This document shows positions 9,289 through 50,647 of a DNA stretch of 55,276 bases, one piece after another. The notes below the pieces were generated by a model, which had not been told where the DNA came from, did not search any database, and saw only the letters and a list, made by a program, of their open reading frames with translations. Each line of letters starts with the position of its first letter. Positions within the stretch are counted from its first letter, which is position 1. A program made the position numbers and the translations under genes. The DNA comes from a virus (Duplodnaviria > Caudoviricetes): positions 1 through 55,276 of the IMG/VR virus record IMGVR_UViG_3300032322_000863; one strand, given 5' to 3'.

Positions 9289-9687
9289 TCAGTCTTCCTT
9301 ACGCTTGCCCGAGGGGCTGACAGGCCACGTCTTCCGGGCCGAACTGGTTTTCTTCCGTGCCATTGACGCTTTGTCCTCCTTGGACATGGAGGCGGCAGCG
9401 GCGGCAGGACGACAGGCCGGATAAGGACGCTTACCCTTTTCGCCTTCAATCCTACCACATTCTTTACCAGTTTTCACATCACGCCAATCTTCGCCAAACC
9501 ATTTCCCCAAACCGCCGCCAGAGGCTTTATTGACGCGATTGTCATCGCCGGACCACTTACCGCCCTTGGACTTGTACCACTTGGCCGCCCATGCGTTGGC
9601 GTAGGCGCTCGGATATACGTCAAACTTGGCGCGGGCCGCTGCCTTGGCGCGACCCCAGAGTCCAGAGTTTTGAGGCTTGGAGGCCAT
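9289..9687 (-). CDS. Basic conserved phage protein (DUF5872-like)
   Basis: YPSAYANAWAAKWYKSKGG, GLGKWFGEDWRDVKTG, YPACRP motifs. Confidence 0.65.
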   Translation of the reverse strand: MASKPQNSGLWGRAKAAARAKFDVYPSAYANAWAAKWYKSKGGKWSGDDNRVNKASGGGLGKWFGEDWRDVKTGKECGRIEGEKGKRPYPACRPAAAAASMSKEDKASMARKKTSSARKTWPVSPSGKRKED

Positions 9688-9688
9688 A

Positions 9689-10252
9689 TCAGCAGTCCCA
9701 CTTCTTAGCGACAAACTTACATATTTCAATTACCTGCGCCAGATCTGCGTCTGCTTTGAACGTATTGATTGAGTAGCAAACCAACCAGCAGTTTTCAGGC
9801 GTATATCCTTTTGAATTATCTATCCGGTCAACAGAAATCCCGTTAAAGAGCCTCTTTCCAGTTCCAGCCGAAACAACCATACGCACTCCACTAATAGCGC
9901 ATGACCATTCTTGCCGCTCCAGAGCTGACAAAAGCCATTCAGTGCTGATTAAAAAATCCATGTTCTTTTTTTTTGCACGGAACTTGGCACTGTTCACAAT
10001 ATGAGCTGCGTAGACTTGCAAGTTTTTGGTTCTTGAGGCTACGCTTCGAGAAAGCCCGTCATTTCTTTTTTTGTTGAGATCTTCGTATTTTTTCATTCTT
10101 TGCTTGTAACACGTCTTGCAGGCCGCATGATATTGAACGCGACCCGTTGCTTTTAGGACTGTTTTGTAAAAACTGCTCTCTGGAAGAGAGCAGCCGCATT
10201 GTGTGCAGCAGCGAGTTTTTACAAAAACAGCATCAATCACGGGCAGTTCCAC
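9689..10252 (-). CDS. HNH-type (homing) endonuclease with N-terminal zinc ribbon
   Basis: CTQC..CKTC, CAISG and SVDRIDNSKGYTPENCWLVC..IN motifs; AT-rich relative to its flanks. Start may be GTG at 10240. Confidence 0.75.
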   Translation of the reverse strand: MELPVIDAVFVKTRCCTQCGCSLPESSFYKTVLKATGRVQYHAACKTCYKQRMKKYEDLNKKRNDGLSRSVASRTKNLQVYAAHIVNSAKFRAKKKNMDFLISTEWLLSALERQEWSCAISGVRMVVSAGTGKRLFNGISVDRIDNSKGYTPENCWLVCYSINTFKADADLAQVIEICKFVAKKWDC

Positions 10253-10485
10253 TTTTTAAGCGCTTTGTTGATCCGACTGTTCGGATCAGCAGCCGCAGCA
10301 GCGCCAGTTAATTTGCGCTTCATGCCGGTCATTCTAGCACAGAATGACTTCTTTCGCGATCCGCCCTCGGGCTGCGGGCGCTTAATATCGTGGCCGGCTG
10401 CGCGAAGCGACGCGCGGCCCTTCTCATTAAGACCGCCGCTTGGATTTTTGCCTTCAGCGCGGGTCCATGCCGGTGACTTCGCCAT
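10237..10485 (-). CDS. Small basic conserved phage protein (DUF6321-like)
   Basis: EGKNPSGGLNEKGRAS, RKKSFCARM, DPNSRINKALKKWNC. Confidence 0.75.
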   Translation of the reverse strand: MAKSPAWTRAEGKNPSGGLNEKGRASLRAAGHDIKRPQPEGGSRKKSFCARMTGMKRKLTGAAAAADPNSRINKALKKWNCP

Positions 10486-10556
10486 CGCACCCTCCATGCA
10501 AGTGCGGGGGCTCAAAGGCCCCCGCTCCCATTACTGAAACGCAAGGGAGGAAACGC

Positions 10557-10793
10557 TCAGTAGTGGGAAGCCTTGCCGCGAGGCGTGCCGGACGAAGCCG
10601 AGGAGAACACGCCACCACCGCTCTTGCGAGCCGGACGCTCGCAGTCCGCAGCAGAGGACATGACCTTCTTGGACATGCCGCCCTTAGCGTACCCGCCGGC
10701 CATCTTCTTGGCGGCCATGCCGCCCTTCTTGAAGCCGTTGGTCTTCTCTTCGGCTTCCTTGATCGTCGAAGCCTTACCTTTGTAAGCACCCAT
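10557..10793 (-). CDS. Small Lys/Gly-rich protein with repeated xxxGG motifs
   Basis: 78 aa with GGAGG RBS; FKKGG, MAGG, YAKGG, RKSGG. Confidence 0.7.
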   Translation of the reverse strand: MGAYKGKASTIKEAEEKTNGFKKGGMAAKKMAGGYAKGGMSKKVMSSAADCERPARKSGGGVFSSASSGTPRGKASHY

Positions 10794-10805
10794 GGAAGCC
10801 TCCTA

Positions 10806-11261: not shown

Positions 11262-11267
11262 TTGCAC

Positions 11268-12291: not shown

Positions 12292-12924
12292 TTATGCGAG
12301 GCCAGTCGGGCCAGCACCGTTAGTGCGGCTGGAGGCGTTGTTGAAGGCGACGATCACGCGGTTGTACTCGGACGCCGCATCGGTTCCCTCGGCGGTCGGG
12401 GGCGACTCGATGAGGCCGACAACGATGAACGGATGTGTGACCGTGGTGGCGAGCGTGGCGACGTTCACGGAAGCCGTGGACAGGCCGTTCGCGGTATTGC
12501 CGTTCGGCGTACCCGCAAGGCCAATGCCATACCCGATGTTGACGTACTCGCCGATGTTGGCGAACGCCACAGCAGCAGTGCCGCCGCTGTCCGAGGACTG
12601 AACCTCAAACTGCATCTGCGGGTTGCTGTAAAGATACGCTTCAACATCGCCGTTGGCGTCAGCGCCGGGCCAATAGTTTGACCAGACAGTGCGCTTCAGG
12701 GAGACAGAAACGTACTTGCAGCCCGAAAAAATGCCCTCGCAGCGGACAGTGCCGCCGGCGGACATCTGGGTGATGTACCCAGTCGTCAGGGGGATTACGG
12801 GGTCGCCCTGAAAGATCTTCGTCGTGTTGTCCGACTTGATGTAGCGAGTAGCAAGCTCGTAGGTCGGCGCAGCGCCATTACCACGGTAGGGAATGAAACC
12901 GAAGGGTGCGTTTGTATTCGGCAC
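12292..12924 (-). CDS. Capsid-associated (cement/decoration) protein
   Basis: GTG start after AAGGAGG; NTNAPFGF, IFQGDPV, GIFSGC; immediately upstream of the MCP. Confidence 0.7.
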   Translation of the reverse strand: MPNTNAPFGFIPYRGNGAAPTYELATRYIKSDNTTKIFQGDPVIPLTTGYITQMSAGGTVRCEGIFSGCKYVSVSLKRTVWSNYWPGADANGDVEAYLYSNPQMQFEVQSSDSGGTAAVAFANIGEYVNIGYGIGLAGTPNGNTANGLSTASVNVATLATTVTHPFIVVGLIESPPTAEGTDAASEYNRVIVAFNNASSRTNGAGPTGLA

Positions 12925-15272: not shown

Positions 15273-16736
15273 TCAGCTCTTGCGCGCTTGGATTTCCGTC
15301 TTTTCTAAGCGCCCAAGCCCTGATCCTGCGCCCGCGTCCATATCCTTGTAGGAGCGGTAAACTTTTCCGCCGGCCTTGCGCGCCTCGCGCTTGCCTTCGG
15401 CAATCTCGGTCTTCTGCATGCGGCCCTCGCCGGATCCAGCGCCAGCCGTCATGTCCTTGTAGGACTTGGCGACAGTACGACCGCCGGTCTTACGGCCCAT
15501 GGGGGCGGGCATCCCCGGAGGGGCCGGGGGCATGGGCATTCCGCCCATCGGAGGGGCCGGAGGCATGCCACCCGGAGCGCCGCCCGGAAGGGGCACGGGC
15601 ACGCCCGGAGGCGGCATGGGCGGGCCACCAGCACCCTGCATCGTCTCGGGGCCGGCGGGCTTGCCAGCGCCAATGATGATGTTGATGTTGGTCTTGCCCT
15701 TGGCGCGACCGCCAGACTTGCGAGCCTTGCGGCCCTCGTCCTTGTCCTTGCCGCCCATCTCGCCCATGGCCATGGCCGGGAGGACACCGCCCATGAGAGC
15801 GCCGCCGCCGAGCTTCTTGGCGCGACCGCCGTTCTTCTTGCCGTCGCCGTCGTCTTTGTCCTTAAGCGACTTGGCAAGGTTGATGCCCATCGCGAGCGGA
15901 CTAAGCATCGAGAGCGCGCCACCAAGGTCTTTACCGGTGCGACCGCCCTTCTTGTACGGCGTGCCCTGAGCCCCGGAAAACTCCATGGCCTTCGGCTTCA
16001 CCATGTTCATGCGCGGATCGCCCATCGGACCGCCCATCATCTTCTCGGCGCGACCGCCCTTCTTGTAGTGCTGGGCCTTTCCGCGCGTCGGCTTAGAGGC
16101 GGCGGCCTGCTCCTTCTGGATCTTCTCCTGCCCGGCGAGGGTGGTGGCGATCTTGCCGCCGTCCTTGCGCGCCGTGCGACCGCCAGACTTGCGGCTGCGC
16201 ATGAAGGCCGCAGCCTCTTCTGCGCTCATGGTGGACGTGTCCATGGGCGGCTTCGAGGTCGAGGGCTTCGGCTTTGCAGGCGCTGCGTTCTGAGCAGCCT
16301 CAAGCTTGCGACGGTAGTCAGCATCCGTCATGCGGTTGAGCTGGCGAACGTTGCCGCCATCCTGCTTCTTGGCTCGCCCGCCAGACTTCAGGCCACCAAT
16401 GTGCTTGATGCCCTCGCGCTCTTGATTGGCCGCCTTGGCGTCGCGGTTGATCTTCGCCTTGGCGTACTCTGCCGCCTCGGCCTTCTCTTCGGCCATCGCC
16501 TTGCCGCCAGCCTTACGCTGCGCACGACCAAGGTTCTTCGGGGCGCTCGCGCCCTCGACCTTGCCGCCAGACTTGTACGCCCGGCGAGAGATCGGGCGCA
16601 TGCCCGTCTTCACTTCCGCGTTGAGCGGCTCGGCGGGCGACCAGTCAGAGCTATCGACCTTCTGATCCTTCTCACCAGCGAGCTTTCGGGCCTTGCCCTT
16701 CATCGCCTCGCGGGCCTTCTTTGCCATGTCAGACAT
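15273..16736 (-). CDS. Disordered Lys/Gly/Met/Pro-rich protein with about 15 xxxGG motifs
   Basis: YKSGG, RKAGG, RKSGG, RKDGG, YKKGG and others; C-terminal duplicated SYKDMxAGAGSGxGRxxKTEI. Confidence 0.8.
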   Translation of the reverse strand: MSDMAKKAREAMKGKARKLAGEKDQKVDSSDWSPAEPLNAEVKTGMRPISRRAYKSGGKVEGASAPKNLGRAQRKAGGKAMAEEKAEAAEYAKAKINRDAKAANQEREGIKHIGGLKSGGRAKKQDGGNVRQLNRMTDADYRRKLEAAQNAAPAKPKPSTSKPPMDTSTMSAEEAAAFMRSRKSGGRTARKDGGKIATTLAGQEKIQKEQAAASKPTRGKAQHYKKGGRAEKMMGGPMGDPRMNMVKPKAMEFSGAQGTPYKKGGRTGKDLGGALSMLSPLAMGINLAKSLKDKDDGDGKKNGGRAKKLGGGALMGGVLPAMAMGEMGGKDKDEGRKARKSGGRAKGKTNINIIIGAGKPAGPETMQGAGGPPMPPPGVPVPLPGGAPGGMPPAPPMGGMPMPPAPPGMPAPMGRKTGGRTVAKSYKDMTAGAGSGEGRMQKTEIAEGKREARKAGGKVYRSYKDMDAGAGSGLGRLEKTEIQARKS

Positions 16737-16770
16737 GCACGTCACTCCGGAGTTGACGGGGCGTCCCCCG

Positions 16771-16831: not shown

Positions 16832-17011
16832 ATGAGCCACTCTGAAGACAAGAATAGATCCGAATTGAGAGACGATATTATGGACCTCGTCCTCTCAATC
16901 TATTTTATCGCAGCAGAACAGAAGGGGTGGACAGAGCCACCCCCCGAAGTTGAAAGGACGATGCACGAGATATTTGAGCTCGTGTCAGTCGGGGTCGGCC
17001 TCAAGGAATGA
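16832..17011 (+). CDS. 59-aa acidic helical protein convergent with the polyvalent gene (candidate immunity/antidote)
   Basis: MSHSEDKNRSELRDDIMDLVLSIYFIAAEQKGWTEPPPEVERTMHEIFELVSVGVGLKE; has RBS and promoter; below the ORF-track length cutoff. Confidence 0.6.
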   Translation: MSHSEDKNRSELRDDIMDLVLSIYFIAAEQKGWTEPPPEVERTMHEIFELVSVGVGLKE

Positions 17012-20000
17012 GCCCTCGGCGCTTCAGGTCCATGTAGGTACTCAAGCGATCAACAACCTCCGGCGTCATCCGAACGGCGGGGGCGCTCATCCGGTACGAA
17101 TACGCAAGTTGCGAATCATTATCAGCAAGTTGCGGCTTTTTGCTGATCTGGTCGTCAATCCACTCCTTGTTTATAACGCGCATCGGCACGTCGTATTCAA
17201 AACCGCCCACGTAACCAACCTCCGGATCAGCAGCAAGCTGGTGTCGATATGACTTGTGCGGGACGGCGGGGCTGTAAATGATACGCCCGCTAGGATCAAG
17301 CTTTGCAATTGTGCGCCCGGCACTGTAATCCGCAGCGTGCAAAAGCGATGGATCGGTGATTGCAAAGCGAGCCGCCCCAACGTCCGGCATCCCCGCGCCT
17401 TGGAAGGATGATTGCCCCATCAGCTCAGCCACCTTTGTTCGAGCCTTGCCGGGTCCGCCGCCGTACAGGTACTCCTGCAAATTCGGGCTCTTCAGTCCCG
17501 GCCAGTCTGCATACGGAGCCCACTTGTTCGCGGTGTTCGTCCGCATTTGGTTATCGAACTCTTTAATCGTCGCCGCCTTCGCCTTGCTGCTCGGCAGAAG
17601 TCCAAGCAGCGCGTCAGTCATGTGATGGGAGTAGTCTCCCGACCGAGACCCCATAGCGACATACGACAGATATGGGTCAAATCCGGCATTAGCCTCTTCT
17701 CTGACCTTGTTTGCCAGCGTTTTGATAACGCCAGCATCGGAAGCCCACACTGCGCGATCAGGGCCGCGAGCCGCGGGTCCATACATGAAGCCATGGCCAC
17801 CCTGCAATTCAACAGGCTGCGCTAGGGGCGTCTCGTTCACCGCCATCAAACGAGCCCCACTGGCTGTACGATCTCCAATGGCCGGAATTAATGACGCGCC
17901 CTCAAGACTAGAGGGGTCAATGAACCTGCGCGGGATACCCTCATCGGTGATAGCCTGCACTGCATGCATTTCTCCGAGTGGTCGCGACAGAACCGTGGAT
18001 GAGATGGAGTGCTGTTTGCGCGGATCCCGCGCACGCGCCGACTCTGGAACATGAAACCCATATTCTCCAGCCTGCGACATGAACCTTGATGACGCTGGGC
18101 GCTCTGCCGTCCGAACAAGGTCCAGAACCTGCTGGACCATCCTGCTCTTGCCCGCCTCCGCCTCCTCCGGCATCATGACGGCGGCACCAGCCCCGCCAGC
18201 CGCCACGGGCGCAGGAACACGGCCCAGCACGTCGCGAGCCGTGTCTACAGCCCTCGCGCCGGCGTCATACACCGCCCGGCCAGCCGCCATGATGGGCTTG
18301 CGGGCGTAATAGGCCGCAGGCAGGCCAGCCGACAAGCCGGCGGACAGGTAGTCCTCGTTGCGGAGGGCGTCTGAAAAGTCTGAGACCGCCAGCGGAATGC
18401 CGGCGGGCGTAAGATCCGCCACACCCATGCCAAGCGTGCCGCTGCCCGGCAGGCCGCGAGATCCGGCCACGATGTCCGCGATCCGGCTGCGCACGATGCC
18501 GCCATCGCCGGCAATCGCACCGCCAAGCACGTCACGACCACCAAGCTCCAGCGGGCGCACGGTGGCCTCGCCCTCGCGCAGCGGGCGCTCACGGAACCGG
18601 CGCACGGCGCTCGCCCAGTTCTCGCCCATGGTCGCCGGGTCCATGACCGGGCGATCCTCGAACGCGCCGAGCTGCTCCAGCGTAGCGCGGCGGCGGGACT
18701 GTGCCGTCTCGCCCCCATCCGCCATCACCTGACGCCCGACGTTCGGCAGGTACTGCGTGGGGTACTGGTCTTCGAGGAGGCGACCACCCTCCGCCCGGTC
18801 AATGCGCGGGCCGCTGAACTCGCCCGTGTTGCTGATAGCAGACTTAATCTGCTCGGGATCGCGCAGGATCACCGCAAGGTCCGGGTTGCTTTCGGGCAGC
18901 CATGCGTCGTGCCCCTGCGAGCGAAGCTGGTCGAACCACTCGGACTGGGCACGCTTGTAGTTTGGAGACATTGCAAAGTCAGGCAGTGCGCCAGTGTAAG
19001 GGTTCTCGGCCCGAGCGAACACGGGGATCACGCGGGAGGCGGTGTTCGTCTTTTCGTAGCTCCAGCCCGGCCCCGGACGAAGGCCCATGCTGTCGTTCTG
19101 GAGCGCATATTCAGAAGCCTCTTCGGGGTTCTTGGTCAACCAAACGCCGTGACGACCGACGTTAAACTGAGGGAAGTCTTTGTCCTTTGAAGTGCCATGG
19201 AAATAGCGGTCCTCAACGCGAGAGGACGGGATCACGCTCTTCCCGCGCCACTTTTCCATCTCCGGCGTGTTGAACAAGTCAGCGACAGCCTTGAGTGCCT
19301 TTTTGACGACTCCGCCCTTGTCGAACCCCTCGCGCGGCTCTTCCTGCCCCGGCTGCGCCATGCCGAGGCCAACAGCCCCCGGAACCATCGTAAAAAGCGG
19401 CAGGCCCTCTTTGATCTTCTCGCGCATGGTGGGGGTGATGTTGAGGGAGGGGAGCTGCCTAGCCTGCGGAGCCGGAGCGTCGGAACTAAGTTCGGCCATA
19501 AGCTCAGAGTCACTAAGGCGCGTCGTGCGCGCATCACGGACTGGCGTCGGGATGCTCACTGTCCCCAACTGAGCGTTCGGATCCATCGGGCGCACCAGCT
19601 TTTGAAGCTGCTGGGGCACGATCTCATCGTAGAACTTTCGCATCCCCGCTTCGCGCTTTTCCCCACCGCCCGGATACCGAGCGGCTTGCGGCGCACCCGG
19701 CGTCCACGCCAATGCGTCATAGTTGCCTTCCGCCGCCTCGCGAAGGGCGCGCTTGAGGGCGAGGTCGGTCCACTTGGGAGTGCTCTCGACAAACGGGGCG
19801 GAAGGAACGCCGCCAAACGACGGCTTGCGAGAATCTATTTCTCGCACTTGGTTAACTAAATCGTCGCGACGAGAAAGCATTGCTGTGAATTCAGGATTAT
19901 TGCGGGCATTGTCGTAATACGCATTAAGCATATCTTCATATTCGCGCGGCGACATTTTGCCGGGCTGGAATCGTGGGGCCTCTCCGCGAAGAGAGTTAAT

Positions 20001-20822
20001 GGCGTCCGCCGCCTGCTGCAATTGACGCTGAACAGCGTCGCGTTCCGCCTTCCATGCATCAACGACAGCAGGGCTATCATTGAACCCACGCTTCCGACCT
20101 TCCTGCGCCCAGTCAGACTGAATTTCCTCGACATGCAGAATGCGCCGTCCTTCCGGGTCGGTTCGATCCTTCAAGCGAAGATGCGCGAGGATGTTGGGGT
20201 CGGGGTAGTGTTCAGAAAGGTAGTTGTTGGGATCGACTCGGCGCATTCCCTGCCCGCCCAGCATCGAAAAGCGAGCCGGCTCATCATTTTCGACTTCCGG
20301 CCTCTTTAACAGCAACTCACGATAGTTCTCGCCACCGGGGAATGTGTATCGCTCGAACTTGGTCGGCTCCTCACGAGACATTCTATTATCAATGATGTCG
20401 TAATACTCGTCAGAAAGCGCTTTATATTGTGGATGCTCAGCAGGCACGCGGCCCGCCGCTATTTCACGAGCAACGATTGCTTCAATTTCACTATCTATTT
20501 CCTGCTTTCGCGCCTCAAGAGAAGCTACCCTCGGATTGTATCCAAGCACGCTCTCATCAACCCGCACCTCATTGCGCCGCAGAAAGTCCGCCACCTCGTC
20601 GCGGGTGACGCTCTGGCGGCCCTTGGCCCAGTCGTCAAAGCCGGTCCACTTCAGTTCGTCCGGCTTGACACCCTGCTTCAGGAGCGCGGCCCGCATCTGC
20701 TGGGGCGTGCCCTTGGCCTGCGGGATCTTTGACGCCTCTTCCGTGGCGCGGGAGAACAGGCCCAGCGGGTTGAGTTCACGAACCGCCTTCAGCGCCTGCT
20801 GGACAATCTTCTCACCGGCCAT
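17001..20822 (-). CDS. Large polyvalent protein with an ADP-ribosyltransferase (ART-PolyVal-like) domain
   Basis: N-terminal GGENYRELLL..LAHLR..HVEEIQSDW module; central YFHGT..GVWLT..ASEYA..IPVF..NPY..GHDA..DPEQIKSAISNTGEF; C-terminal domain not recognised. Confidence 0.75.
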   Translation of the reverse strand: MAGEKIVQQALKAVRELNPLGLFSRATEEASKIPQAKGTPQQMRAALLKQGVKPDELKWTGFDDWAKGRQSVTRDEVADFLRRNEVRVDESVLGYNPRVASLEARKQEIDSEIEAIVAREIAAGRVPAEHPQYKALSDEYYDIIDNRMSREEPTKFERYTFPGGENYRELLLKRPEVENDEPARFSMLGGQGMRRVDPNNYLSEHYPDPNILAHLRLKDRTDPEGRRILHVEEIQSDWAQEGRKRGFNDSPAVVDAWKAERDAVQRQLQQAADAINSLRGEAPRFQPGKMSPREYEDMLNAYYDNARNNPEFTAMLSRRDDLVNQVREIDSRKPSFGGVPSAPFVESTPKWTDLALKRALREAAEGNYDALAWTPGAPQAARYPGGGEKREAGMRKFYDEIVPQQLQKLVRPMDPNAQLGTVSIPTPVRDARTTRLSDSELMAELSSDAPAPQARQLPSLNITPTMREKIKEGLPLFTMVPGAVGLGMAQPGQEEPREGFDKGGVVKKALKAVADLFNTPEMEKWRGKSVIPSSRVEDRYFHGTSKDKDFPQFNVGRHGVWLTKNPEEASEYALQNDSMGLRPGPGWSYEKTNTASRVIPVFARAENPYTGALPDFAMSPNYKRAQSEWFDQLRSQGHDAWLPESNPDLAVILRDPEQIKSAISNTGEFSGPRIDRAEGGRLLEDQYPTQYLPNVGRQVMADGGETAQSRRRATLEQLGAFEDRPVMDPATMGENWASAVRRFRERPLREGEATVRPLELGGRDVLGGAIAGDGGIVRSRIADIVAGSRGLPGSGTLGMGVADLTPAGIPLAVSDFSDALRNEDYLSAGLSAGLPAAYYARKPIMAAGRAVYDAGARAVDTARDVLGRVPAPVAAGGAGAAVMMPEEAEAGKSRMVQQVLDLVRTAERPASSRFMSQAGEYGFHVPESARARDPRKQHSISSTVLSRPLGEMHAVQAITDEGIPRRFIDPSSLEGASLIPAIGDRTASGARLMAVNETPLAQPVELQGGHGFMYGPAARGPDRAVWASDAGVIKTLANKVREEANAGFDPYLSYVAMGSRSGDYSHHMTDALLGLLPSSKAKAATIKEFDNQMRTNTANKWAPYADWPGLKSPNLQEYLYGGGPGKARTKVAELMGQSSFQGAGMPDVGAARFAITDPSLLHAADYSAGRTIAKLDPSGRIIYSPAVPHKSYRHQLAADPEVGYVGGFEYDVPMRVINKEWIDDQISKKPQLADNDSQLAYSYRMSAPAVRMTPEVVDRLSTYMDLKRRGLIP

Positions 20823-26403: not shown

Positions 26404-26433
26404 AACCATCTCCCAATTTAACCTTACCCCCAG

Positions 26434-42669: not shown

Positions 42670-42680
42670 GCCCCTTCTCC

Positions 42681-45347
42681 TCAAATATGCTGATTAGCAA
42701 CCTCAAGAGCCTTGGCCACCGTGTCGTCGTCGGTGTTCAAAAGCTTTTCGGTGCTGGACGTTACATGATGTTTTGCGCTCTTGGCGAGAGCCTTCAGGTT
42801 CACCGCCCCGCCTGTGGCGCGACCGCGACGCTGAAGCGGGATGGTGAGTTCGCGATACATTTCTTCGGTCGTCTTGGGCGTCGGGGTCGGCTCGTCTGGG
42901 AGACGCTCCGCCGCGAAGCCAAGGGCAGGGCCGCGTGAGGCTATCTCGCGCAGGAAGGCGTTGAGGCGAAGTGTGTTTGCCTCGGACGGCTTTTGCGCCA
43001 AGAAACGTGCGAACTGAGGATCAGTAACAGCGCGCTGGAGAGCCGCCATAGCTTGCTCTTGCGTGGTGCCATACACCATGCGCGCAGCAAACCGGGTCAC
43101 GGGGGTCATGACTTGCGATGCCGTAGCGCCTGCGGCGGCCCCCAGAGCCTCAAAGGCAATCTGGGCGGGGATAGTCATGCCGAGCGCCTTGCCTGCGCCG
43201 TATCCCGCCGCAGCCCCAGCAAATGAGCCAATAGCGCGTCCATGCAACAACGTGAACATATCGCCGCTCGACAGCAGCTTTAGTCGCTGCTGCGCACCCT
43301 GCGGAAGCTCTTCGTTGACCGGGAGCTTCTTCAAGATGTTGGCAGACTGATTGACGCGGTCGATGAAGGCGCGACCATCCGGGTCAGTCACAAATTTATT
43401 GATGTCTGCCCGGTTATTCTTGATCCAGCTCGACAGCTTTGCCGGATCACGCTGTACGGCGTCCGACAGGGACATGACGATCTGGTTGCCGAGCCCCGTG
43501 TTGGCGATCTGGTCTAAGCGCGCCTCAAGGCCGGGAACCTCGCGGATCAAGCCGTCGTAGCCGGGGTTCTTGCGAAAGCTGGCAATCATTTCCGGCGTAA
43601 TAAACGCCTTTCCGCCAAGGATCTTCGATACGACCCAATCCCCGACAGGGCGAGCTACATCGACGCCCGGAATGTTTTGGATCTCGCGGTAGCGCGATAG
43701 CGCCTCGTCGGGTGATCCGAGCACCTTGGACAGGAATAGCTCCGGCTCAATGACCGGGCGACCAGCCTCAGAATGATACCGGCTATGAACCTCGGAAAGG
43801 GGCTTCGTGGCTGGCGTCTCAAACGTGCTCTTGTACTCGCGCGTCATTGTGCGCGCGTTGTCAAACGCCGCACCAACTTCAGAGGGCGTGACACCCTTCA
43901 TGAAGATATTGGACACGGCCTTCGTGTCCGTCATCATGTCGTCGAGCTTGGTTGAGATGGCCTTTGCAGCCGTAACCGCCGAGGGCTTGGCCGTCGGATC
44001 GCGCAAAACCGAGTTCACATCCGCCTTGAGTCTTTGCACGTCGGCGAACGGGATCTGGCCCCCCGGATAATTTCGCAGCGCCTCGACCTGCTGCATGATG
44101 TCGTTGCCGATGCTCAGCCGGGCGGTTCCCATTTCCTTGAACGCATCGTCAATCGCCCGGCCCACAGCACTGGAGTTGTAGCGCGCTTGCGTAAAAGCAG
44201 GATGATCCCACGCGGCCTCATAAGCCACGCGGGCCGGCTCTTGGATGGCTCGGTAAAGGTTCTGCGCCTCTGCCGATGACATAGACATCGGGTTAACGGT
44301 CGTGTCTTTGACGCCGCCCGGCTGGATCTCCTCCGGAATTGCGGCGGCGGCGCGCTCAACGATCATGCGGCTCTGGTCGGCCTGCGTGCGCGCGGCCTGC
44401 TGCCCACCCGGCACGGCGCGCTCCAGCGCCTCCATGCGTGAGCCGTAAGCCTGCGCCGAAGTAGGATCCACACCCACTAGCGTGTCGCCAACCATCGGCG
44501 GACGACTAGCGACGTTCGGGTCGGTCTCACGAATGATGTCGCCAGCGATGCGCTCGCTGCGTTCCGCCGTGGCGGCAGGCGTGCGGCCAGCTATGGCACG
44601 ACCAGCCAGCATGCCGGGAACGACGCCAAGGACGCGCGCAGCGGCCTCGTCGTCAGTACCTCTTAAGGCTTCGCCAGCGGCCCCGCTGGTTGCCCCAGCC
44701 CCCGTGGTGGTCGTAAGTTCACGCACCGCGGCCTGACCCGGCCCAGCGGCTCTGGGCGCACCCAGCGCGCCACGCACACCCATCGACACGGCGGACGTGG
44801 CGGGTACTTGCCCAGCGAACTCGCCAATAGTGCCCACGATACGGGATGCTGGCGTCTTGCCTTCATACTTGATGCTCGGAACAGCTCCGGCGGCCAAGTT
44901 CACCATGGACTGCCCGGTGGGGAAAGGAAGTCCGGCAATTCTGTATTCGGTTCCGGCGCGCTCGCCCGGCGTCATGCGCTCCTCAATTGGCGCGAGCCGC
45001 TCCTCATATGCCTTTCGGGCAGCTCCGGGCTGCGCCTTGCCGCGCAACTCCTGAACGCGATTTTGAACCCATGCGGCGTAGGCAGGGGAGCGCTCGTAAA
45101 GCTGACCGATGTCGCCGACGATTCCCGGCAGCGACACGATTCCGCGCCCCACACCCGCCGCGCCAGCGCCAAGAATGTCAGCGGTATGCTCGCCGAAGGT
45201 CTGCGGCGTCTTCGGCGTTTCTTGGCTGCGTCTCCGCTCGACGAACTCTGCCTGACGGAGCCGCTCGAAAGGGTCTTCGTCGGGTCGTGTGGATGGCGCA
45301 GGCGCGTTGATCGGGGGGAGGTGACCGAACGGGTCTTGCTCGTTCAT
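42681..45347 (-). CDS. Large internal virion / ejection protein
   Basis: 888 aa, Ala/Gly-rich helical with TM-like segments; located after the nozzle, GNAT and pilot genes. Confidence 0.65.
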   Translation of the reverse strand: MNEQDPFGHLPPINAPAPSTRPDEDPFERLRQAEFVERRRSQETPKTPQTFGEHTADILGAGAAGVGRGIVSLPGIVGDIGQLYERSPAYAAWVQNRVQELRGKAQPGAARKAYEERLAPIEERMTPGERAGTEYRIAGLPFPTGQSMVNLAAGAVPSIKYEGKTPASRIVGTIGEFAGQVPATSAVSMGVRGALGAPRAAGPGQAAVRELTTTTGAGATSGAAGEALRGTDDEAAARVLGVVPGMLAGRAIAGRTPAATAERSERIAGDIIRETDPNVASRPPMVGDTLVGVDPTSAQAYGSRMEALERAVPGGQQAARTQADQSRMIVERAAAAIPEEIQPGGVKDTTVNPMSMSSAEAQNLYRAIQEPARVAYEAAWDHPAFTQARYNSSAVGRAIDDAFKEMGTARLSIGNDIMQQVEALRNYPGGQIPFADVQRLKADVNSVLRDPTAKPSAVTAAKAISTKLDDMMTDTKAVSNIFMKGVTPSEVGAAFDNARTMTREYKSTFETPATKPLSEVHSRYHSEAGRPVIEPELFLSKVLGSPDEALSRYREIQNIPGVDVARPVGDWVVSKILGGKAFITPEMIASFRKNPGYDGLIREVPGLEARLDQIANTGLGNQIVMSLSDAVQRDPAKLSSWIKNNRADINKFVTDPDGRAFIDRVNQSANILKKLPVNEELPQGAQQRLKLLSSGDMFTLLHGRAIGSFAGAAAGYGAGKALGMTIPAQIAFEALGAAAGATASQVMTPVTRFAARMVYGTTQEQAMAALQRAVTDPQFARFLAQKPSEANTLRLNAFLREIASRGPALGFAAERLPDEPTPTPKTTEEMYRELTIPLQRRGRATGGAVNLKALAKSAKHHVTSSTEKLLNTDDDTVAKALEVANQHI

Positions 45348-48300
45348 CAGTTGGTCCTCCAGTAGCGCGCCAGTCCGGGTGTATCAAATCGCGCATCAAA
45401 TCGACGCGACGATGATGGGTCTTTTCGAAGAATATCGACAGCACTTTCGCGCCGCGTCACAGTCTGTCCGTTGACGCGCTCAGTGATCGGGAAGGCTTGC
45501 ATCGACGCCTTAAGCCTTTGCCTCTCAAGGTCGTAGCGGTCGCCCATCTCTTTGTTAAAGTTGTCGTAGACGTTCAGTGCGGTGCCATAGCGGCGCGTGT
45601 AGGCGTCGTAGTAGCGAGCGAAATCGCGATCCCGCTGAAACTCCACCAACATATTGGCGATGATGGTGTTGGCAGACTCCTTGTCGAGGTTTCCGCTAGG
45701 CATTGCGTTGCGGATTGAAGTAGCAACAGCCGCAGCATTAAATCCGCCCTGCGCAGCCATTTGCACAGACCCAAGCTCTTGGATCTTGCGAATGATTTGA
45801 GCATCTTGAATGTCCGAGCCGACATCAATCTGCGCGCCGGGGAGCCCCGCAATTTTGGCCGCCGTATTGTAGATGTTCACCAGAGCCGCACGACCCTCCT
45901 GACCAGCGCCTTCTCCGGTAAGGTTGTTAGTGCTGATGCGGTTAACCGACGTGGCCAGAGACCACAAATCAGAGATACTACGATCCGTCGCGCGAGATGC
46001 GTCACGAATTGCCTGAGCAGTAGCCGCCTCTTTTTCTGCCCGCTCACGCAGGTTTGGCACCGTGTTGATCGCTGCCTCAATGGCGCGCGGATTGTTAATG
46101 TTGACGCCCGGAGGCAACACGCTGCGGATGTACTCGTCCGAAATTCCGCCGCGTGCCGGGGTCACGTCGATGCGGTACTCGCCCTCCTTCGGGATCTCAA
46201 TTGCACCAACCCGCGTGACAGGGCCAGTGGCGGCAGGAGGAGCAGCGGCAGGCGGACCGGCTTGCGGAGCGGTCTCTGCGGTTGCAGGAGGCTCCCGCGC
46301 CGGCTGTACACCGGATGGCGGGGGCGCGGGAGGAAGGGCGTCCGCCGTCGGGCGCCCGGCCACAGGCTGTCTGCTGCCAGCGGTAGGAGGTGCCTCACCA
46401 CGCGGACTCGCCGTGCGTACGGCCTGTTCGACTTCGCGCCGGGTTTGCGGCAGGAGATTGTACCTGTCAGGGTTCTCCAGCACTTCGTAGAAAGGAACGT
46501 AGCGCATGCCGCCACGTCCATCAGAGACAAGCACAGCCTGCGGGAAGCCCCTTGCGTCGTACTTGATGGACGCTCCCGCCGCCTGCACGTTCGTGAGCCC
46601 CGTCCGGGCGCTGGCCTCATCGGCCTCGGACTGCTGTTTCTGAAGGCCAGTGTACGCACTTGTGCCGCCAACGAGCCCTTCGCCAATAGCACTGGCCAGA
46701 TACGGAGACCTTGACGCCAGCATTGATCCGATGCCGGCGAGCGCAGGAACCCAGAGGTTTTCGGACGTAAGAGCCTGTTTTGTTTCAGGCTTCATGTCGC
46801 GACCGAACATGCCACCGATTAGGGTTGCGTAAGGCGAGCGAGAAGGAATTTGCTCGGGAGGGATCACTCCGCCAATTGGGCGCTCACCGCTCGCGACACC
46901 CGGCGGCGGTGATCTTCCCGCCTCCCGTGCCCGCAAGATACGCTCCTCATCTTCAGATCTGGGCGTGCCGCCCTCTTGATAGCCCTGCCGAGGCGCGAGG
47001 CCCGCCGCCACGTCAGTGGCGCGCTTGTAATCGACCATCTTGAGGCCGCCGAGGCCGGCAACCGCATCGCTATGTCCATTGTGCTCCAGATCCTGCGCCA
47101 TGAGGCCGATCTGGGTCTTGGGCGAGCCCTTCATGTTGTAGCGATAGATCGGCTGGCCGTCGTAAAGCTCGCCGACTGGCTCGATGTTGTCCTTCATGCG
47201 GGCATCGGACGGCAAAAACATCATCGCCGTTTTGGCGATGGATGCTGCCTTTGAGCCCGCATCCAGAAGCTCACTAGCGCCACTCTGGCCCGGCGCACCA
47301 AGCTTGCCCGCAGTCATCAGCTCGCGCTTTTGATTGTCAGCCTCGCCAATCTTCTGAAGCGGATCTTCGCCCATATCACTGGTGGAGTAAGGCATACCGC
47401 CGCCAGCATACTCACCTCGCGTCAAGCCGCCGCGATAGAACAGCTTGTCACGATCCCACTCAGCCTGCGGCAGTGATTCAGCGATACTGTCCGCTCCCTT
47501 CGGGGGCGGAGGGGCCGCGCGAGAGGGGCCCGCTTCTCCGCCTCCAAGGCCAGAAAGAAATCCCTGACGGCTGAACTCGCCGCCTTTGCCCAAAAGACCA
47601 CGGCTAGCCGCAGAGTCCCTAGTGGCGGGGGAGCCAGTCAGCGCCTCTTTGCCCGTCTTGGCGAGCCCGGCAATCTTTGATCCGGTATCCAGCGCTTCAC
47701 TGAGACCAGAGGGGCGCTGCTGCGGCAGGCTGCCAGCGGTGACGAGCTTCGGCTGCGCCATCTGCGACTGGGGGATGTAGCCGGGAGCACCAGCCCCACC
47801 AGTGCCAGCGCCACCATACAAGCCCTTCCCACCGTAGAACGCAAGCGGCTGGCCGATGGCGGCCAGAATGGCTCGCATGTCGTCGGACCCGACAACCTGA
47901 CCACCAGAGGCATACGCGCCAGAGCGGGCAACGAGGCCGCCCATGGACTGGGAGCCAACCTCGCCGCCAAACCCGTACCGGGGAGCCTGCACGCTTCCCT
48001 TGCCTGCGCTCGGCTGAAAGCCGCTCTGAGTAGGAAGACCCATCTGCGGAAGCTGTGGCCGAGGAGACTGAACAGAGTTCTTGCCGCCGATAGACGGACC
48101 ACCTACCGGAGCTGGCACGGGAGGCTGAACAGAATTTTTGCCGCCAATAGAGGGGCCACCGGTCGGCAGCGCCGAGGGCGCAGAGCTGCCGGCAGCGCCA
48201 GAGGCTACACCCTGACTGCCCGGCGGAAACTGGAACTGCTGGCCATTAGCCATATTCTGCTGGGCCTGAAAATCAGACACTGCACCAGACGGCGTACCAA

Positions 48301-49570
48301 GCCCCGTGGCCCTATTATTCACGTCGTTATAGCGCGCCATCACCTCAGAGGGGATCTGGACCTGCGGTTGAGCGCTCTGGTTGCTCATCATCGCACTTTG
48401 CGAGGGCGCAAATTGATTAGATGTGGAACCAGACAGTGCGCCCGTCCCCATCGCACTTTGCGAGGGTGCAGGGGACGGACTATAAGACGGAGCCTGCACA
48501 CCTCCCTTGCCGGCACCGCCGCCAAAGGCGCGAGACTGGCGACCTTCTGGCGCTACTACTTTTCGGCCATTAATCTCACCGACCAGCTCTGGCGCGCTCT
48601 TCTCGATGTCCTGCGCCATGGGACCAACGCGCTTGGGCGGCATGGGCCGACCATCGCGCTCCGCAGCCTCCACGTCGTCCTTGTAGTCGTAGGCATAGAG
48701 CCCCTTGCCGAGGGGCTGGACGTTGGTCTTCTCGCGCTCGTCCGAAAAGAACGGAGCCATCTGCGTTGTGGCAGTCGTTGACCCGGACAGCGCGCCCGTC
48801 CCCATCGCGATGTTCGCGAGGAACTGCGCCGTCTGGAAGTCGTATCCGCGCTCTTGCAGGAACTGATTGTAGAGCGCCTGCAACCCGGCCTGCTGCGTCT
48901 GCTGCTCAGCCGTACCAGCCGCAAGCTGCGCCTGCGCGCCGGCAAGAGCAGACTGCTGGGCCTGCGCGCCGAGGCCACCAAGCTGCTGGCCGGCCATCAT
49001 CTGGCGTTGAAGATCCTGCGCCTGCACGCCCTGCTGGCCCATCGCCGTCTGGACGGCGTTTTGGTAGGCCTGCTGGTACAGGGGCGAGATCGCCTGCGCC
49101 GTTGCAAGCCCCTGCTGGCCCTGAAGCTGTGCTCGCTGAATGCCCGCACGGTCGCCGCCGAACGCGCCAGCCTTAATTGCCTCCGCCTGCTGCTGGGCGA
49201 GCTGCTGGCCCTGCTGCTGCTGGAGCCCGGCCCGCGTGGCGTCAACCACTGACTGCGTGTACGGGTTTTGATACTGTTGGATCTGCTGCGAAGTGAGGGG
49301 CCCAACAGCCTGCGCGCCGCCCATGGTGAGGCCGGCGGCGGTGTTGAAGTACGGCTGGGTCATCCCAGCCGCCTGATTGATGTTCTGTATGCCCGCCTGC
49401 TGCGTCTGCGTTAGGGGCGCAACGAATGCGTTCGGGTCTCGGCTATAAGCCTGAAAAGGTTTACTGGCGGCGGATTCTGCCCTCGCGTTAACGGCGTTGT
49501 AACGCGCCATAACCTCTGGCGGGATCTGAACCTGCTGGGTAGCTGTTTGGGTTTTTCCGCCGCCGCTCAT
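45347..49570 (-). CDS. 1407-aa pilot/ejection polyprotein with two internal S74-like domains
   Basis: MSGGGKTQT start; Gln-rich GAFGGDR region; FSDEREKTNV..GPMAQDIE and SDARMKDNI..IGLMAQD..VDY. Confidence 0.75.
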   Translation of the reverse strand: MSGGGKTQTATQQVQIPPEVMARYNAVNARAESAASKPFQAYSRDPNAFVAPLTQTQQAGIQNINQAAGMTQPYFNTAAGLTMGGAQAVGPLTSQQIQQYQNPYTQSVVDATRAGLQQQQGQQLAQQQAEAIKAGAFGGDRAGIQRAQLQGQQGLATAQAISPLYQQAYQNAVQTAMGQQGVQAQDLQRQMMAGQQLGGLGAQAQQSALAGAQAQLAAGTAEQQTQQAGLQALYNQFLQERGYDFQTAQFLANIAMGTGALSGSTTATTQMAPFFSDEREKTNVQPLGKGLYAYDYKDDVEAAERDGRPMPPKRVGPMAQDIEKSAPELVGEINGRKVVAPEGRQSRAFGGGAGKGGVQAPSYSPSPAPSQSAMGTGALSGSTSNQFAPSQSAMMSNQSAQPQVQIPSEVMARYNDVNNRATGLGTPSGAVSDFQAQQNMANGQQFQFPPGSQGVASGAAGSSAPSALPTGGPSIGGKNSVQPPVPAPVGGPSIGGKNSVQSPRPQLPQMGLPTQSGFQPSAGKGSVQAPRYGFGGEVGSQSMGGLVARSGAYASGGQVVGSDDMRAILAAIGQPLAFYGGKGLYGGAGTGGAGAPGYIPQSQMAQPKLVTAGSLPQQRPSGLSEALDTGSKIAGLAKTGKEALTGSPATRDSAASRGLLGKGGEFSRQGFLSGLGGGEAGPSRAAPPPPKGADSIAESLPQAEWDRDKLFYRGGLTRGEYAGGGMPYSTSDMGEDPLQKIGEADNQKRELMTAGKLGAPGQSGASELLDAGSKAASIAKTAMMFLPSDARMKDNIEPVGELYDGQPIYRYNMKGSPKTQIGLMAQDLEHNGHSDAVAGLGGLKMVDYKRATDVAAGLAPRQGYQEGGTPRSEDEERILRAREAGRSPPPGVASGERPIGGVIPPEQIPSRSPYATLIGGMFGRDMKPETKQALTSENLWVPALAGIGSMLASRSPYLASAIGEGLVGGTSAYTGLQKQQSEADEASARTGLTNVQAAGASIKYDARGFPQAVLVSDGRGGMRYVPFYEVLENPDRYNLLPQTRREVEQAVRTASPRGEAPPTAGSRQPVAGRPTADALPPAPPPSGVQPAREPPATAETAPQAGPPAAAPPAATGPVTRVGAIEIPKEGEYRIDVTPARGGISDEYIRSVLPPGVNINNPRAIEAAINTVPNLRERAEKEAATAQAIRDASRATDRSISDLWSLATSVNRISTNNLTGEGAGQEGRAALVNIYNTAAKIAGLPGAQIDVGSDIQDAQIIRKIQELGSVQMAAQGGFNAAAVATSIRNAMPSGNLDKESANTIIANMLVEFQRDRDFARYYDAYTRRYGTALNVYDNFNKEMGDRYDLERQRLKASMQAFPITERVNGQTVTRRESAVDILRKDPSSSRRFDARFDTPGLARYWRTN

Positions 49571-49584
49571 ATCAGCCCCTCTGC

Positions 49585-50076
49585 TTACTCAGCCGCCTCG
49601 CGCCATTCGCCGGTTCGGACGCCATACAAAAAGTACGCTCCAGAAGGCTTCCCAAAAATCCGCTCGTACATGCGGATTTTACCTTCCGTCCGATGGTTGG
49701 AGAGAACGCCAATGGTCAGCGGGATCCCCAATTCATCCGAGACTTTCTTCCCGAACTCACAAAGCTTGCGGGCCCGCCCGCCTTTTACAGCCCTGAAATC
49801 CGGATGAATAAAAACAGCCCGTTCCTCAAGTATTGCATCGTCACTATACCAGATGTTGCCAATTCGCAAAAGGATTGCGCCTTGGGGCTTCTGGCCGGGA
49901 ACTCCGACAATACCGACGATACCCTTGTCCCGGTTCAGGGCGGGCCAAATCTCTCCCAAAAGCCGCTCCGCATTCGGCTTTACGAAGCCGTTTTCCTCGC
50001 AGGCGGCCAGCGCCAGATCCATGATGTCGTACACGTCGTCTGGGTTTCCGACCCAAACCTTCAGATTGTCGGCCAT
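49585..50076 (-). CDS. GNAT-fold protein of the podovirus tail/ejection module
   Basis: LEERAVFIHPDFR..GGRARKLCEF..RMYER; GGGGAG RBS. Confidence 0.7.
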   Translation of the reverse strand: MADNLKVWVGNPDDVYDIMDLALAACEENGFVKPNAERLLGEIWPALNRDKGIVGIVGVPGQKPQGAILLRIGNIWYSDDAILEERAVFIHPDFRAVKGGRARKLCEFGKKVSDELGIPLTIGVLSNHRTEGKIRMYERIFGKPSGAYFLYGVRTGEWREAAE

Positions 50077-50095
50077 AGTTCTCCCCTTATCTGCC

Positions 50096-50647
50096 TCAGT
50101 CACGGCGAGGCCCCGGAAGCTTTTTGAGCGTGCTAATCGTCTCCGCTCGGGTCTGCTTAATCCATTCGTCCAGAGCCTTGTGCCCGGCGTCCATGTCGCC
50201 GCCGCCAGCCCAAGCAACCTCATCGGGCGTCAGAACGTACTCACCACCGGCTGCGACAATGGCCACGGGATCGCCAACGGGGCCACCCTCCGCATATCCG
50301 CCAGACGGCGCGTTCCGAAACATGGTTTTAACGGTGCGGAACCCCGCCATAGTGTTGCCCTCGCCGAGGGCGGAAACAATGTCGGCTGGAATGACATACG
50401 AACCGGATGGAACGTGCATGGGGAGGTGATCCGTCCGCCCCGCGACGGGCGAGTGGATCGGCCCAACGTGCGTCTTGGATACGGTGGGCGTCTGCGGCTT
50501 CGGGGGAGACATGCCGCCCATGGCCTTCGTCTCTCGCGCCGTCTTGAGGGCGATGGCGATAGCCTGCTTCTGCGGGCGGCCCGAGTGAACCAGCTCGCTG
50601 ATGTTGGCGCTAATGGTCTTCTGAGACTTACCTTTTGCGAGCGGCAT
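50096..50647 (-). CDS. Conserved late protein: KQAIAIAL basic helix plus duplicated G-[SE]-YV module
   Basis: QKQAIAIAL; GRTDHLPMHVPSGSYVIPADIVSALG; YAEGG..AAGGEYVLTPDEV. Confidence 0.75.
   Translation of the reverse strand: MPLAKGKSQKTISANISELVHSGRPQKQAIAIALKTARETKAMGGMSPPKPQTPTVSKTHVGPIHSPVAGRTDHLPMHVPSGSYVIPADIVSALGEGNTMAGFRTVKTMFRNAPSGGYAEGGPVGDPVAIVAAGGEYVLTPDEVAWAGGGDMDAGHKALDEWIKQTRAETISTLKKLPGPRRD

Follow-up and report, generated by a model that had tools for sequence, protein, structure and literature searches.

What does a short peptide motif that ends in two glycines do in the late proteins of an uncultured phage? The question is raised by IMG/VR record IMGVR_UViG_3300032322_000863, a 55,276-base stretch of DNA (the window, below) that looks like a podophage genome and is seemingly whole. 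The initial annotation of this stretch had noticed a five-residue pattern, [RKYFM]xxGG, in at least seven late proteins, taken it for a genome-wide signal and proposed that it directs cargo into the procapsid or marks sites of cleavage. We examined this pattern (the 5-mer) together with its extension R..[RKYFM]..GG (the 8-mer), in which an arginine lies three residues further upstream. We conclude that the 8-mer is very probably a real, lineage-restricted short linear motif, situated in the predicted-disordered module ends of one class of late proteins. The finding is real, narrower and sharper than it was first stated.

Is the pattern more frequent than the composition of the proteins would predict? 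It was counted in a working list of 65 open reading frames (ORFs) that we built from the ORF table; the 35 ORFs at positions 1-25,000 and from 41,300 to the end are called late and the other 30 early, a division of our own by ORF position and strand. Genes were named with PHROGs and Pfam. Every string quoted in the initial annotation is present in the gene to which it was assigned. In full residue shuffles the late proteins are expected to contain 23.4 5-mers and contain 53; the early proteins contain eight against 6.4. The excess over simple shuffles is largely glycine clustering. When the glycine positions are held fixed, the 490-residue and 78-residue proteins (listed below) have 21 5-mers against 9.1, a count reached in none of 2000 shuffles. 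The remaining 33 late proteins have 32 against 25.3 (p 0.08; local shuffles in 40-residue blocks expect 25.8, p 0.09), and the early proteins eight against 7.2. Since the glycine-fixed counts outside those two proteins are near expectation, the 5-mer fails as a genome-wide signal; its significance is confined to the pair.

How does the arginine alter the count? It had been said often to lie three residues ahead of the 5-mer, and does so in 19 of the 53 late copies, the rest lacking it; these 19 are the 8-mers of the late proteins, for which shuffles predict 2.1. If the 490- and 78-residue proteins are set aside, nine remain against 1.5, a number that none of 3000 shuffles reached. The 8-mer with alanine at position -2, counted outward from the GG pair, occurs seven times against 0.17 expected. 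Early proteins contain no 8-mer, against 0.5. Composition-matched shuffling thus upholds an enrichment of the 8-mer, and does not uphold that of the 5-mer outside the 490- and 78-residue proteins. Exactly seven of the 65 ORFs (146, 78, 490, 1273, 888, 1407 and 183 residues) possess the 8-mer, in agreement with the 'at least seven' proteins first claimed. It is absent from the replication proteins, as had also been observed, and the portal, terminase, major capsid protein and tail fibres are likewise without it. The seven genes and their sites are the following.

9289..9729, minus strand: 146-residue DUF5872 protein; RVNKASGG at 9514-9537 (residue 65).
10557..10793, minus strand: 78-residue basic protein, isoelectric point (pI) 10.1; 8-mer RPARKSGG at 10614-10637.
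15273..16736, minus strand: 487-residue protein (490 residues from the GTG at 16745); 16 5-mers and nine 8-mers.
16563-16586, 16503-16526, 16353-16376, 16155-16178 and 16029-16052, minus strand: 8-mer sites 1-5 of the 487-residue protein.
15918-15941, 15801-15824, 15708-15731 and 15366-15389, minus strand: 8-mer sites 6-9 of the same protein.
17001..20822, minus strand: 1273-residue polyvalent protein, directly downstream of the portal gene.
19311-19334 (REGFDKGG, residue 497), 18783-18806 (RIDRAEGG, residue 673) and 18711-18734 (RQVMADGG, residue 697): 8-mers of the 1273-residue protein, flanking its ART-PolyVal domain.
42681..45347, minus strand: 888-residue protein of the ejection/tail module; 8-mer RRGRATGG at 42807-42830 (residue 840).
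45347..49570, minus strand: 1407-residue ejection-type protein (phrog_4287, 'DNA ejection protein'; two Peptidase_S74 matches); eight 5-mers.
48518-48541 (RQSRAFGG), 47396-47419 (RGEYAGGG) and 46967-46990 (RQGYQEGG), minus strand: 8-mers of the 1407-residue protein.
50096..50647, minus strand: 183-residue protein with an N-terminal helical module (phrog_2423, residues 1-42) that ends in RETKAMGG at 50513-50536 (residue 38); it also has YAEGG.

About 15 copies had been reported in the 487-residue protein, and the 490-residue form has 16 5-mers at 15 distinct glycine runs, out of 22 GG runs. For the 78-residue protein the reported four is right as a number of glycine runs and one short as a number of matches, since five 5-mers lie at the four runs (2.0 expected, p 0.007). 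The sole named domain of the 1273-residue protein, whose first residues are MAGEKIVQ, is ART-PolyVal (PF18760, residues 540-669; 33.4 bits against a cut-off of 31.2, E 8.9e-8). RVNKASGG falls between the phrog_27331 (27-55) and phrog_23735 (72-132) parts of the 146-residue protein; RETKAMGG is followed by a hypervariable proline-rich linker; the first and third 8-mers of the 1407-residue protein each come about 65 residues after an S74-like segment. The 8-mer sites of the window lie at residues 38-861 of their host proteins and are mostly internal. Against PDB sequences the 1273-, 1407- and 888-residue proteins gave zero, zero and one match, the last at E 0.52, none of them meaningful.

If the 8-mer is a feature of these proteins, does it recur in their relatives? 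The closest deposited genome is that of the uncultured phage MW202675, whose portal is 71% identical, and there the 8-mer occurs at matching positions. MW202675 has 13 8-mers in seven of its 81 annotated coding sequences, all of them the corresponding structural genes. In BLAST-paired orthologues the sites agree in position (residue 38 of both the 183-residue protein and its 193-residue counterpart; residue 344 of the 1407-residue protein and 341 of its 1185-residue counterpart), and the x residues of the 8-mer differ. A 620-residue protein of MW202675, in the gene position of the 888-residue protein, has REGRKSGG at residue 563; BLASTP does not pair it with the 888-residue protein at E 1e-5.

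Two larger sets give the same result. From 80 portal-anchored viral contigs (portals 64-94% identical) we took plus-strand ORFs of at least 60 residues, of which 661 of 881 were kept after removal of near-duplicates. The post-portal proteins, apart from the relatives of the 487-residue protein (the 490 family), contain 63 8-mers against 8.6 expected and 262 5-mers against 142, and 39 of 132 post-portal proteins have an 8-mer. The 490 family itself contains 113 8-mers against 9.8. As controls, the portal has zero against 1.9, the large terminase (TerL) zero against 1.6 and the upstream genes two against 3.5; the GroES-to-capsid module has three against 0.6. For the other set, the ART segment alone, motifs excluded, was compared with 1.84 billion cluster representatives and found 561 proteins at E <= 0.001; the best 150, minus four at 89% identity or more, are the 146 representatives of the ART-PolyVal set. 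In these polyvalent proteins there are 152 8-mers against 22.8 expected (standard deviation 4.6) and 707 5-mers against 382, with at least one 8-mer in 83 of the 146.

How widely is the motif distributed? Among 50,697 deposited phage genomes the ART segment matched one record. In 78 ART-anchored loci a portal homologue is present in 56 and a 490-family gene in 22, where the locus extends that far, and those contigs that have motif-bearing polyvalent proteins and enough downstream sequence carry a 490-family gene. In the genes examined, phages SU10 and RW lack both the 8-mer and a 490-family homologue. The motif is lineage-restricted.

Which of its residues are kept? A logo centred on GG alone reads R-[IM]-x-[KRYF]-[AK]-[DE/S]-G-G-x-[VI]. 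It agrees in two sets, with enrichments of 2.2-fold for R(-6), 2.4-2.9-fold for I/M(-5), 2.4-2.6-fold for A(-2) and 3.6-3.9-fold for V/I(+2); further positions are G at -4, Y/F/K at -3 and D/E at -1. The same logo made from the portal, TerL and upstream controls has none of these preferences. Among 121 aligned members of the 183-residue family (at least 69% identical), R38, G44 and G45 are 100% conserved and A42 97%, and K, R or M stands at position 41; conservation falls to 36-64% at the x positions and 22-55% in the subsequent linker, the motif being the end of a conserved helix. When 37 members of the 490 family are aligned, the fraction identical to the window residue reaches 0.84 at the GG pair and 0.83 at the arginine upstream of it; glycines outside the motif score 0.65 and the x positions, like the remaining residues, 0.61. 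Judged from these alignments, the motif residues are under purifying selection. Enrichment, replication and residue conservation together bear out the view of the initial annotation that this is a shared, selected feature of one late-protein class.

Two other sources of the strings were considered and rejected. A nucleotide repeat or recombination box does not lie behind the motif: over the 19 sites the longest common stretch has a mean of 7.4 nucleotides, and the GG codons vary. The E. coli GroES mobile loop contains ETKSAGG, and RETKAMGG might have been a mimic of it; the loop of the phage's GroES-like protein is KTKSGLFL, and most sites are without the hydrophobic triplet. A further idea was that the motif might be a target of Arg-ADP-ribosylation by the ART domain.

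Where does the motif stand with respect to the domains? The initial annotation had placed it in linkers between domains, and this is borne out by the PHROG and Pfam boundaries in the 146-, 183- and 1407-residue proteins, by the spacing from the end of ART and by low predicted local distance difference test scores (pLDDT) in AlphaFold2 (AF2) models. Of the 146 ART-PolyVal proteins 130 have a downstream 5-mer. In 108 of these it starts 5-9 residues past the point where ART is projected to end, and in 83 exactly 8 past that point; the consensus of the tail is '...QIKSA.GN.G.FD....[RH][IM][DN][KR]A.GG.V[ED]'. GG is followed directly by the next module ('GGK.VV.KAL...'), and this is also the point at which stand-alone genes begin ('MGGKK...', 'MAGEKVVQ...'). 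Other domains are followed by the motif as well: Hydrolase_2 after 4-5 residues (3/3), L5_gp82 after 12 (2/2) and InPase after 10 (1/2), and at Peptidase_M15_3 (3/3) the match closes with a 5-mer, another copy lying about 40 residues on. None follows GP88 (0/3) or LPD38 (0/1), both C-terminal domains; for LPD23, DUF7178 and PBECR5 the closest copy is 83-267 residues off. In the AF2 model of residues 490-725 of the 1273-residue protein (50-row alignment; mean pLDDT 75.9) the ART core has values of 82-98, and the three motif segments, at less than 60, are read as disordered. The homology of the 1407-residue protein to its MW202675 orthologue stops at the first motif (residues 4-352 and 2-349).

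Copies also occur at the ends of proteins. In phage HTVC027P the two halves of the 146-residue protein are separate genes, the second of which (gp50) starts MRSYYSEGG, and the motif stands at the extreme start or end of small separate genes. A 5-mer lies in the first 25 residues of 17 of the 146 ART-PolyVal proteins and 15 of the 132 post-portal proteins, against six of 321 upstream controls; such N-terminal copies are mostly preceded by an amphipathic helix of the type 'IR.AL..AKR...[YF]A.GG'. It ends 12 residues or fewer from the C-terminus in 14 of 146, one of 132 and six of 321, respectively.

Several features of the same proteins may be recorded here. In the 1273-residue protein a longer element, 'GGRLL.DQYP..Y.P.VGRQV.ADGG', joins two motif copies (18711-18806, minus strand); it occurs six times in the 881 ORFs of relatives, internally or at the extreme N-terminus of post-portal proteins. 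The 183-residue module 'KQAIAIAL.TAR' matches phrog_2423, a 52-position profile, and one 490-family member, P0101, has an inserted DUF6496 domain of similar sequence. The 1407-residue protein has internal, shortened Peptidase_S74 (intramolecular chaperone) segments at about residues 277 and 788, with the Ser-x4-Lys signature in FFSDEREK and LPSDARMK; the signature is found likewise in the C-terminal S74 of the tail fibre at 41356-42684 (SSDRRLK), and the MW202675 orthologue has the first S74-like segment. From its sequence, the 1407-residue protein may cut itself at two internal points.

What is the protein that bears the most copies? The 487-residue protein has a pI of 10.3, with 98 lysines and arginines against 48 aspartates and glutamates (net charge about +50), and is 16% glycine. 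The major capsid protein (pI 5.4), the portal (5.0) and two unnamed proteins of 295 (5.0) and 210 residues (4.9) from the capsid-assembly module are, in contrast, acidic. The gene of the 487-residue protein lies between the portal and polyvalent genes and the capsid-assembly genes. Among 8000 candidates scored, at least 3610 metagenomic homologues were found, all unnamed; no Pfam, NCBIfam or PHROG family matched, and the ESM Atlas gave unnamed viral clusters only. PF10685 is the KGG stress-protein repeat. Neither the 490- nor the 78-residue protein matches any Pfam family at E <= 5, and hence not the KGG model either. The best 120 homologues have a median of 14 5-mers (range 6-21) and seven 8-mers (range 3-10). 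The commonest GG-to-GG spacing in the family is 8 residues, which gives the unit GG-R-A-x-[RK]-K-x-GG. A strongly conserved N-terminal region of about 130 residues is followed by a variable, repeat-rich middle; further parts are a 'KGKTNINIVI' strand with a proline- and methionine-rich tract behind it and two conserved C-terminal 'SYKDM.AGAGSG.GRL.KTEI' repeats. The protein is largely low-complexity and conserved. In one co-folding run of the major capsid, 295- and 210-residue proteins with its residues 172-282, the score was 0.00, the mark 0.32 and the pLDDT of the partner less than 50, an outcome that speaks neither for binding nor against it.

Is there a protease that might read the motif? 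The initial annotation had recognised no canonical prohead protease, and Pfam, PHROGs and NCBIfam agree. No processing peptidase was found by Pfam among the 65 ORFs, or by PHROGs and NCBIfam among late or selected proteins, and Pfam found no clan CE, papain-like, C39 or ABC transporter family in the window ORFs. The 1273-residue protein has no peptidase family, the zincin-like MPTase domain included; in a scan of 39 related polyvalent proteins the sole peptidases were cell-wall M15 domains. A 190-residue protein of the capsid module, modelled by AF2 at a mean pLDDT of 69.9, has no fold match in the PDB (best E 0.38), and its structural look-alikes are uncharacterised viral proteins, nine of them at E <= 0.001.

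How, then, might one motif serve seven proteins? We infer that the motif-bearing class consists of encapsidated and ejected proteins. The candidate cargo would comprise the post-portal polyvalent ART protein, three ejection-module proteins and two small basic proteins. The multivalent 487-residue protein would act as a hub: cargo with the motif would collect on it and be retained near the acidic assembly proteins, or later near the DNA, and would thereby be enclosed in the procapsid, in a manner akin to a cargo-loading peptide with a disordered multivalent scaffold. The occurrence of N-terminal, C-terminal and internal copies, that is, the independence of position, speaks for a docking motif. 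We prefer the reading of a shared recognition element with the 487-residue protein as loading hub because the side chains are conserved, any position works, a multi-copy protein co-occurs and no protease was found. As a whole statement, mechanism included, it is a tentative proposal, possible rather than probable. An extended form of it is doubtful: that this is the cargo code of an abundant uncultured podophage lineage, in which the 487-residue hub would co-assemble with R-[IM]-x-[KRYF]-A-x-G-G-x-V proteins and bring effector modules directed against the host into the procapsid; the joints with G-G would perhaps be cut later or serve as points of unfolding in ejection.

Several points weigh against the recognition-element reading. 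The status of 'cargo' was drawn from family names and gene position. The motif was defined post hoc, after inspection of the data, and because of this the evidential weight rests on the replications in other genomes; the sequences of the portal-anchored and ART-PolyVal sets are in turn related, with inherited sites, so that their counts measure conservation and not independent origins. In the SU10 paper, gp20-24 are given as five ejection proteins, from mass spectrometry. None of the five has an 8-mer, and their six 5-mers compare with about four expected. In Caulobacter phage RW the 8-mer is found in no annotated gene, the ejection module included, and occurs only in ORFs unmatched to the annotation. 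Since the ejection genes of SU10 and RW lack the 8-mer, encapsidation in the lineage with SU10-type portals needs no motif in general. Distant giant ART proteins of 2165-2938 residues have just one to five 5-mers and zero or one 8-mer. Finally, two different things are possibly combined here: repeats of the basic type R-K-x-G-G-R, found in the 490- and 78-residue proteins, and acidic joints of the type A-[DE]-G-G-x-V, found in the polyvalent proteins.

Might nothing read the motif in trans? It could be a structural joint, a helix C-cap or small GG-turn hairpin that is inherited with shuffled modules and is flexible enough for threading through portal and tail; we regard this as possible, and about as likely as the hub. 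A joint would sit at a fixed spacing from domain ends (8 residues in 83/130 for ART; Hydrolase_2 3/3; L5_gp82 2/2), the next module and stand-alone genes would begin right past its GG, homology between orthologues would break at it, and it would terminate a conserved helix as it does in the 183-residue family; SU10 and RW do without it and show no apparent loss. A passive hinge, however, does not require R(-6), I/M(-5), Ala(-2) and V/I(+2) to be conserved, or an aromatic or basic residue at -3. The segments are not packed onto the domain in the AF2 model (pLDDT below 60), the reading does not account for a separate, conserved protein that has about 15 copies, and the sites share no nucleotide identity (mean 7.4 nucleotides) able to drive recombination. 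Or might it be cut? GG at P2-P1 is used by adenain, by Ulp-like and papain-like proteases and by C39 peptidases, and an unrecognised phage or host protease might cut after G-G, freeing modules, removing N-terminal leaders and chopping the 487-residue protein into basic peptides. The sites lie exactly at module boundaries and behind N-terminal amphipathic helices, as such processing would have it, and the S74-like segments of the 1407-residue protein could cut on their own N-terminal side only, the motif lying about 65 residues later. Polyvalent proteins have been predicted to be processed, and processing is reported for DarA and DdrB of phage P1 (PMC5512222). We nevertheless consider di-glycine processing unlikely. 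No processing protease is found in the window or in the 39 polyvalent proteins, and the 190-residue protein is without a PDB fold match. A cut near the C-terminus (14/146, e.g. 'KRKYARGGAV' then stop) or at the MRSYYSEGG of gp50 would achieve little, stand-alone phrog_2423 matches just the N-terminal module of the 183-residue protein, which suggests that the module works intact, and tandem GG-x6-GG doublets would yield octapeptides.

A split of the motif into two unrelated things has also to be weighed, with the basic K/R-x-G-G-R repeats binding and neutralising packaged DNA and the A-[DE]-G-G-x-V joints being a separate type of linker. Position -2 is K in 50% of the 490-family sites and A in 25-27% of the polyvalent sites, which have D/E at -1, and the net charge of about +50 of the 490-residue protein would suit contact with DNA. 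But the two types agree in R(-6), in the basic or aromatic character of -3, in GG and in V/I/A at +2, GG pairs with a spacing of 8 residues are found in both, mixed forms exist in post-portal proteins ('GGRVAYKKGG', 'RKPRKAGG'), and the types occur together in the same genomes; we find the split quite improbable. The least probable explanation by far is chance, or an artefact of the composition of late proteins rich in Gly, Lys and Arg. Outside the 490- and 78-residue proteins the 5-mer is indeed non-significant with Gly fixed (32 against 25.3, p 0.08), and the residue class was picked after the data had been seen; against this, the 8-mer count was unreached in 3000 shuffles and was replicated elsewhere with negative controls, and motif residues are conserved beside variable linkers.

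Does the recognition element with its hub resemble a known system? The capsid-targeting sequence (CTS) of phage T4, found in the internal proteins IPI-III and in Alt, is confined strictly to the N-terminus and acts via the scaffold core, and the gp21 protease cuts it off at L/I-x-E. The present motif is similarly a short peptide common to otherwise unrelated proteins, here with a predicted location in the head, and some copies partly recall the CTS in following an N-terminal amphipathic helix; unlike the CTS, its sites are internal, C-terminal or N-terminal and have G-G as their last residues, and Pfam, PHROGs and NCBIfam revealed no prohead protease. The adenovirus protease cuts at (M/I/L)-X-G-G|X, and adenain-type G-G pairs stand at joints of basic internal or core protein precursors. 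A G-G at joints is common to the present motif and to adenain, Ulp and papain-like sites, and a polyprotein of basic peptides would fit the 487-residue protein; the conserved residues at -6, -5, -3 and -2 and the absence of a clan CE or papain-like domain from the window set it apart. Several proteins resemble those with double-glycine leaders, in that an amphipathic helix precedes a G-G within their first ~20-45 residues; such leaders belong to C39 peptidase-ABC exporters, of which none was found, and the present sites are mostly internal with other conserved positions. In encapsulin cargo-loading peptides and carboxysomal CsoS2, short glycine-containing motifs tie cargo to an HK97-fold shell, with a basic, repetitive, disordered bridging protein. 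They may serve as a working model for the 487-residue protein by analogy, the present case being a DNA-packaging phage capsid and sequence similarity being absent. The likenesses to the CTS, adenain, double-glycine leaders, encapsulin and CsoS2 are functional analogies; of their defining features, those that we tested are absent.

The 1273-residue protein does resemble the polyvalent proteins of Iyer et al. (2017; PMC5512222) in having ART-PolyVal and in lying among late genes beside the portal. Its relatives combine ART with LPD23, Hydrolase_2, InPase, GP88, PBECR5, M15 and GNAT domains. PMC5512222 proposes that polyvalent proteins are processed by zincin-like MPTase domains, common there though not obligatory; this domain was undetected in the 1273-residue protein and in the 39 relatives scanned. 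The strings 'linker', 'glycine', 'interdomain', 'boundar' and 'IKSA' are absent from the main text of PMC5512222, which does not describe this joint motif. The phi24B preprint, in its accessible part, has a 2811-residue polyvalent protein in virions and reports no such motif. We found no description of the motif in print: the listed matches to its peptide strings include no phage paper, and the literature on capsid targeting, prohead proteases and Gly-Gly returned only T4, phiKZ/SPN3US-type systems and bacteriocin leaders.

In what genome does the motif reside? The other genes named by PHROGs and Pfam are as follows.

11371-12276: major head protein, an HK97-type capsid protein.
14583-14975, minus strand: GroES/Cpn10-like gene, inside the capsid-assembly module (Pfam E 1.4e-6).
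20828-23089: SU10-type portal.
23322-24989: large terminase.
25437-25931: small terminase.
Two SU10-type adaptor proteins.
Tail fibres and an amidase endolysin.
Plus strand: replication genes.

The remoter portal relatives are Caulobacter phage RW, the Pelagibacter phages HTVC027P and HTVC023P and the Roseobacter phages CRP-901 and CRP-902, the paper on which contains no mass spectrometry; the major capsid protein has at least 6905 near-identical relatives in metagenomes. The GroES-like gene is kept in MW202675, HTVC027P and RW, and its conservation within the capsid-assembly module suggests that folding of the capsid depends on host GroEL. Between it and the capsid gene lie three conserved unnamed proteins, all on the minus strand, of 295 (13688-14575), 190 (13112-13684) and 210 residues (12292-12924). 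The 295-residue protein, acidic and helical, matches the C-terminal half of the Mu-like_Pro profile below threshold (E 0.54) and by sequence looks like a scaffold; the 210-residue protein, whose family consensus matches no named family, may be an accessory capsid protein. A GapR-like DNA-binding protein (26122-26409, minus strand; Pfam E 3.5e-30) has a counterpart in RW, which hints at an alphaproteobacterial host.

Among the structural genes are an endonuclease VII/HNH-type gene (9689-10252, minus strand), which overlaps the start of the 146-residue ORF as drawn, and two small, basic, cysteine-containing proteins of the head region, DUF5872 (9289-9729) and DUF6321 (10237-10515), both on the minus strand. 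The latter pair is common to HTVC027P (gp49/gp50 and gp52) and was not detected in RW, and thus tracks the motif-bearing lineage; DUF6321 aligns to the C-terminal ends of far longer PHROG families. At the end of the window a 766-residue ORF (3-2300, minus strand) runs out of the sequence; it has methyltransferase, glycosyltransferase, TPR and sugar-binding DXD regions and adjoins a GDSL-lipase tail fibre protein (2671-4137).

What does the motif mean for the biology of these phages? How tailed phages without a T4-type system pick the proteins that they enclose and inject is largely unknown, as is whether polyvalent anti-defence effectors are dismantled after injection. For the study of both the choice of proteins and their processing after injection, a recognisable, conserved joint motif offers a concrete point of entry, and with it comes a very large, unnamed family of basic repeat proteins. 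The motif can also serve in practice as a rule for marking off the modules of giant polyvalent proteins. Should it indeed be a loading tag, it would be usable to pack foreign proteins into phage heads.

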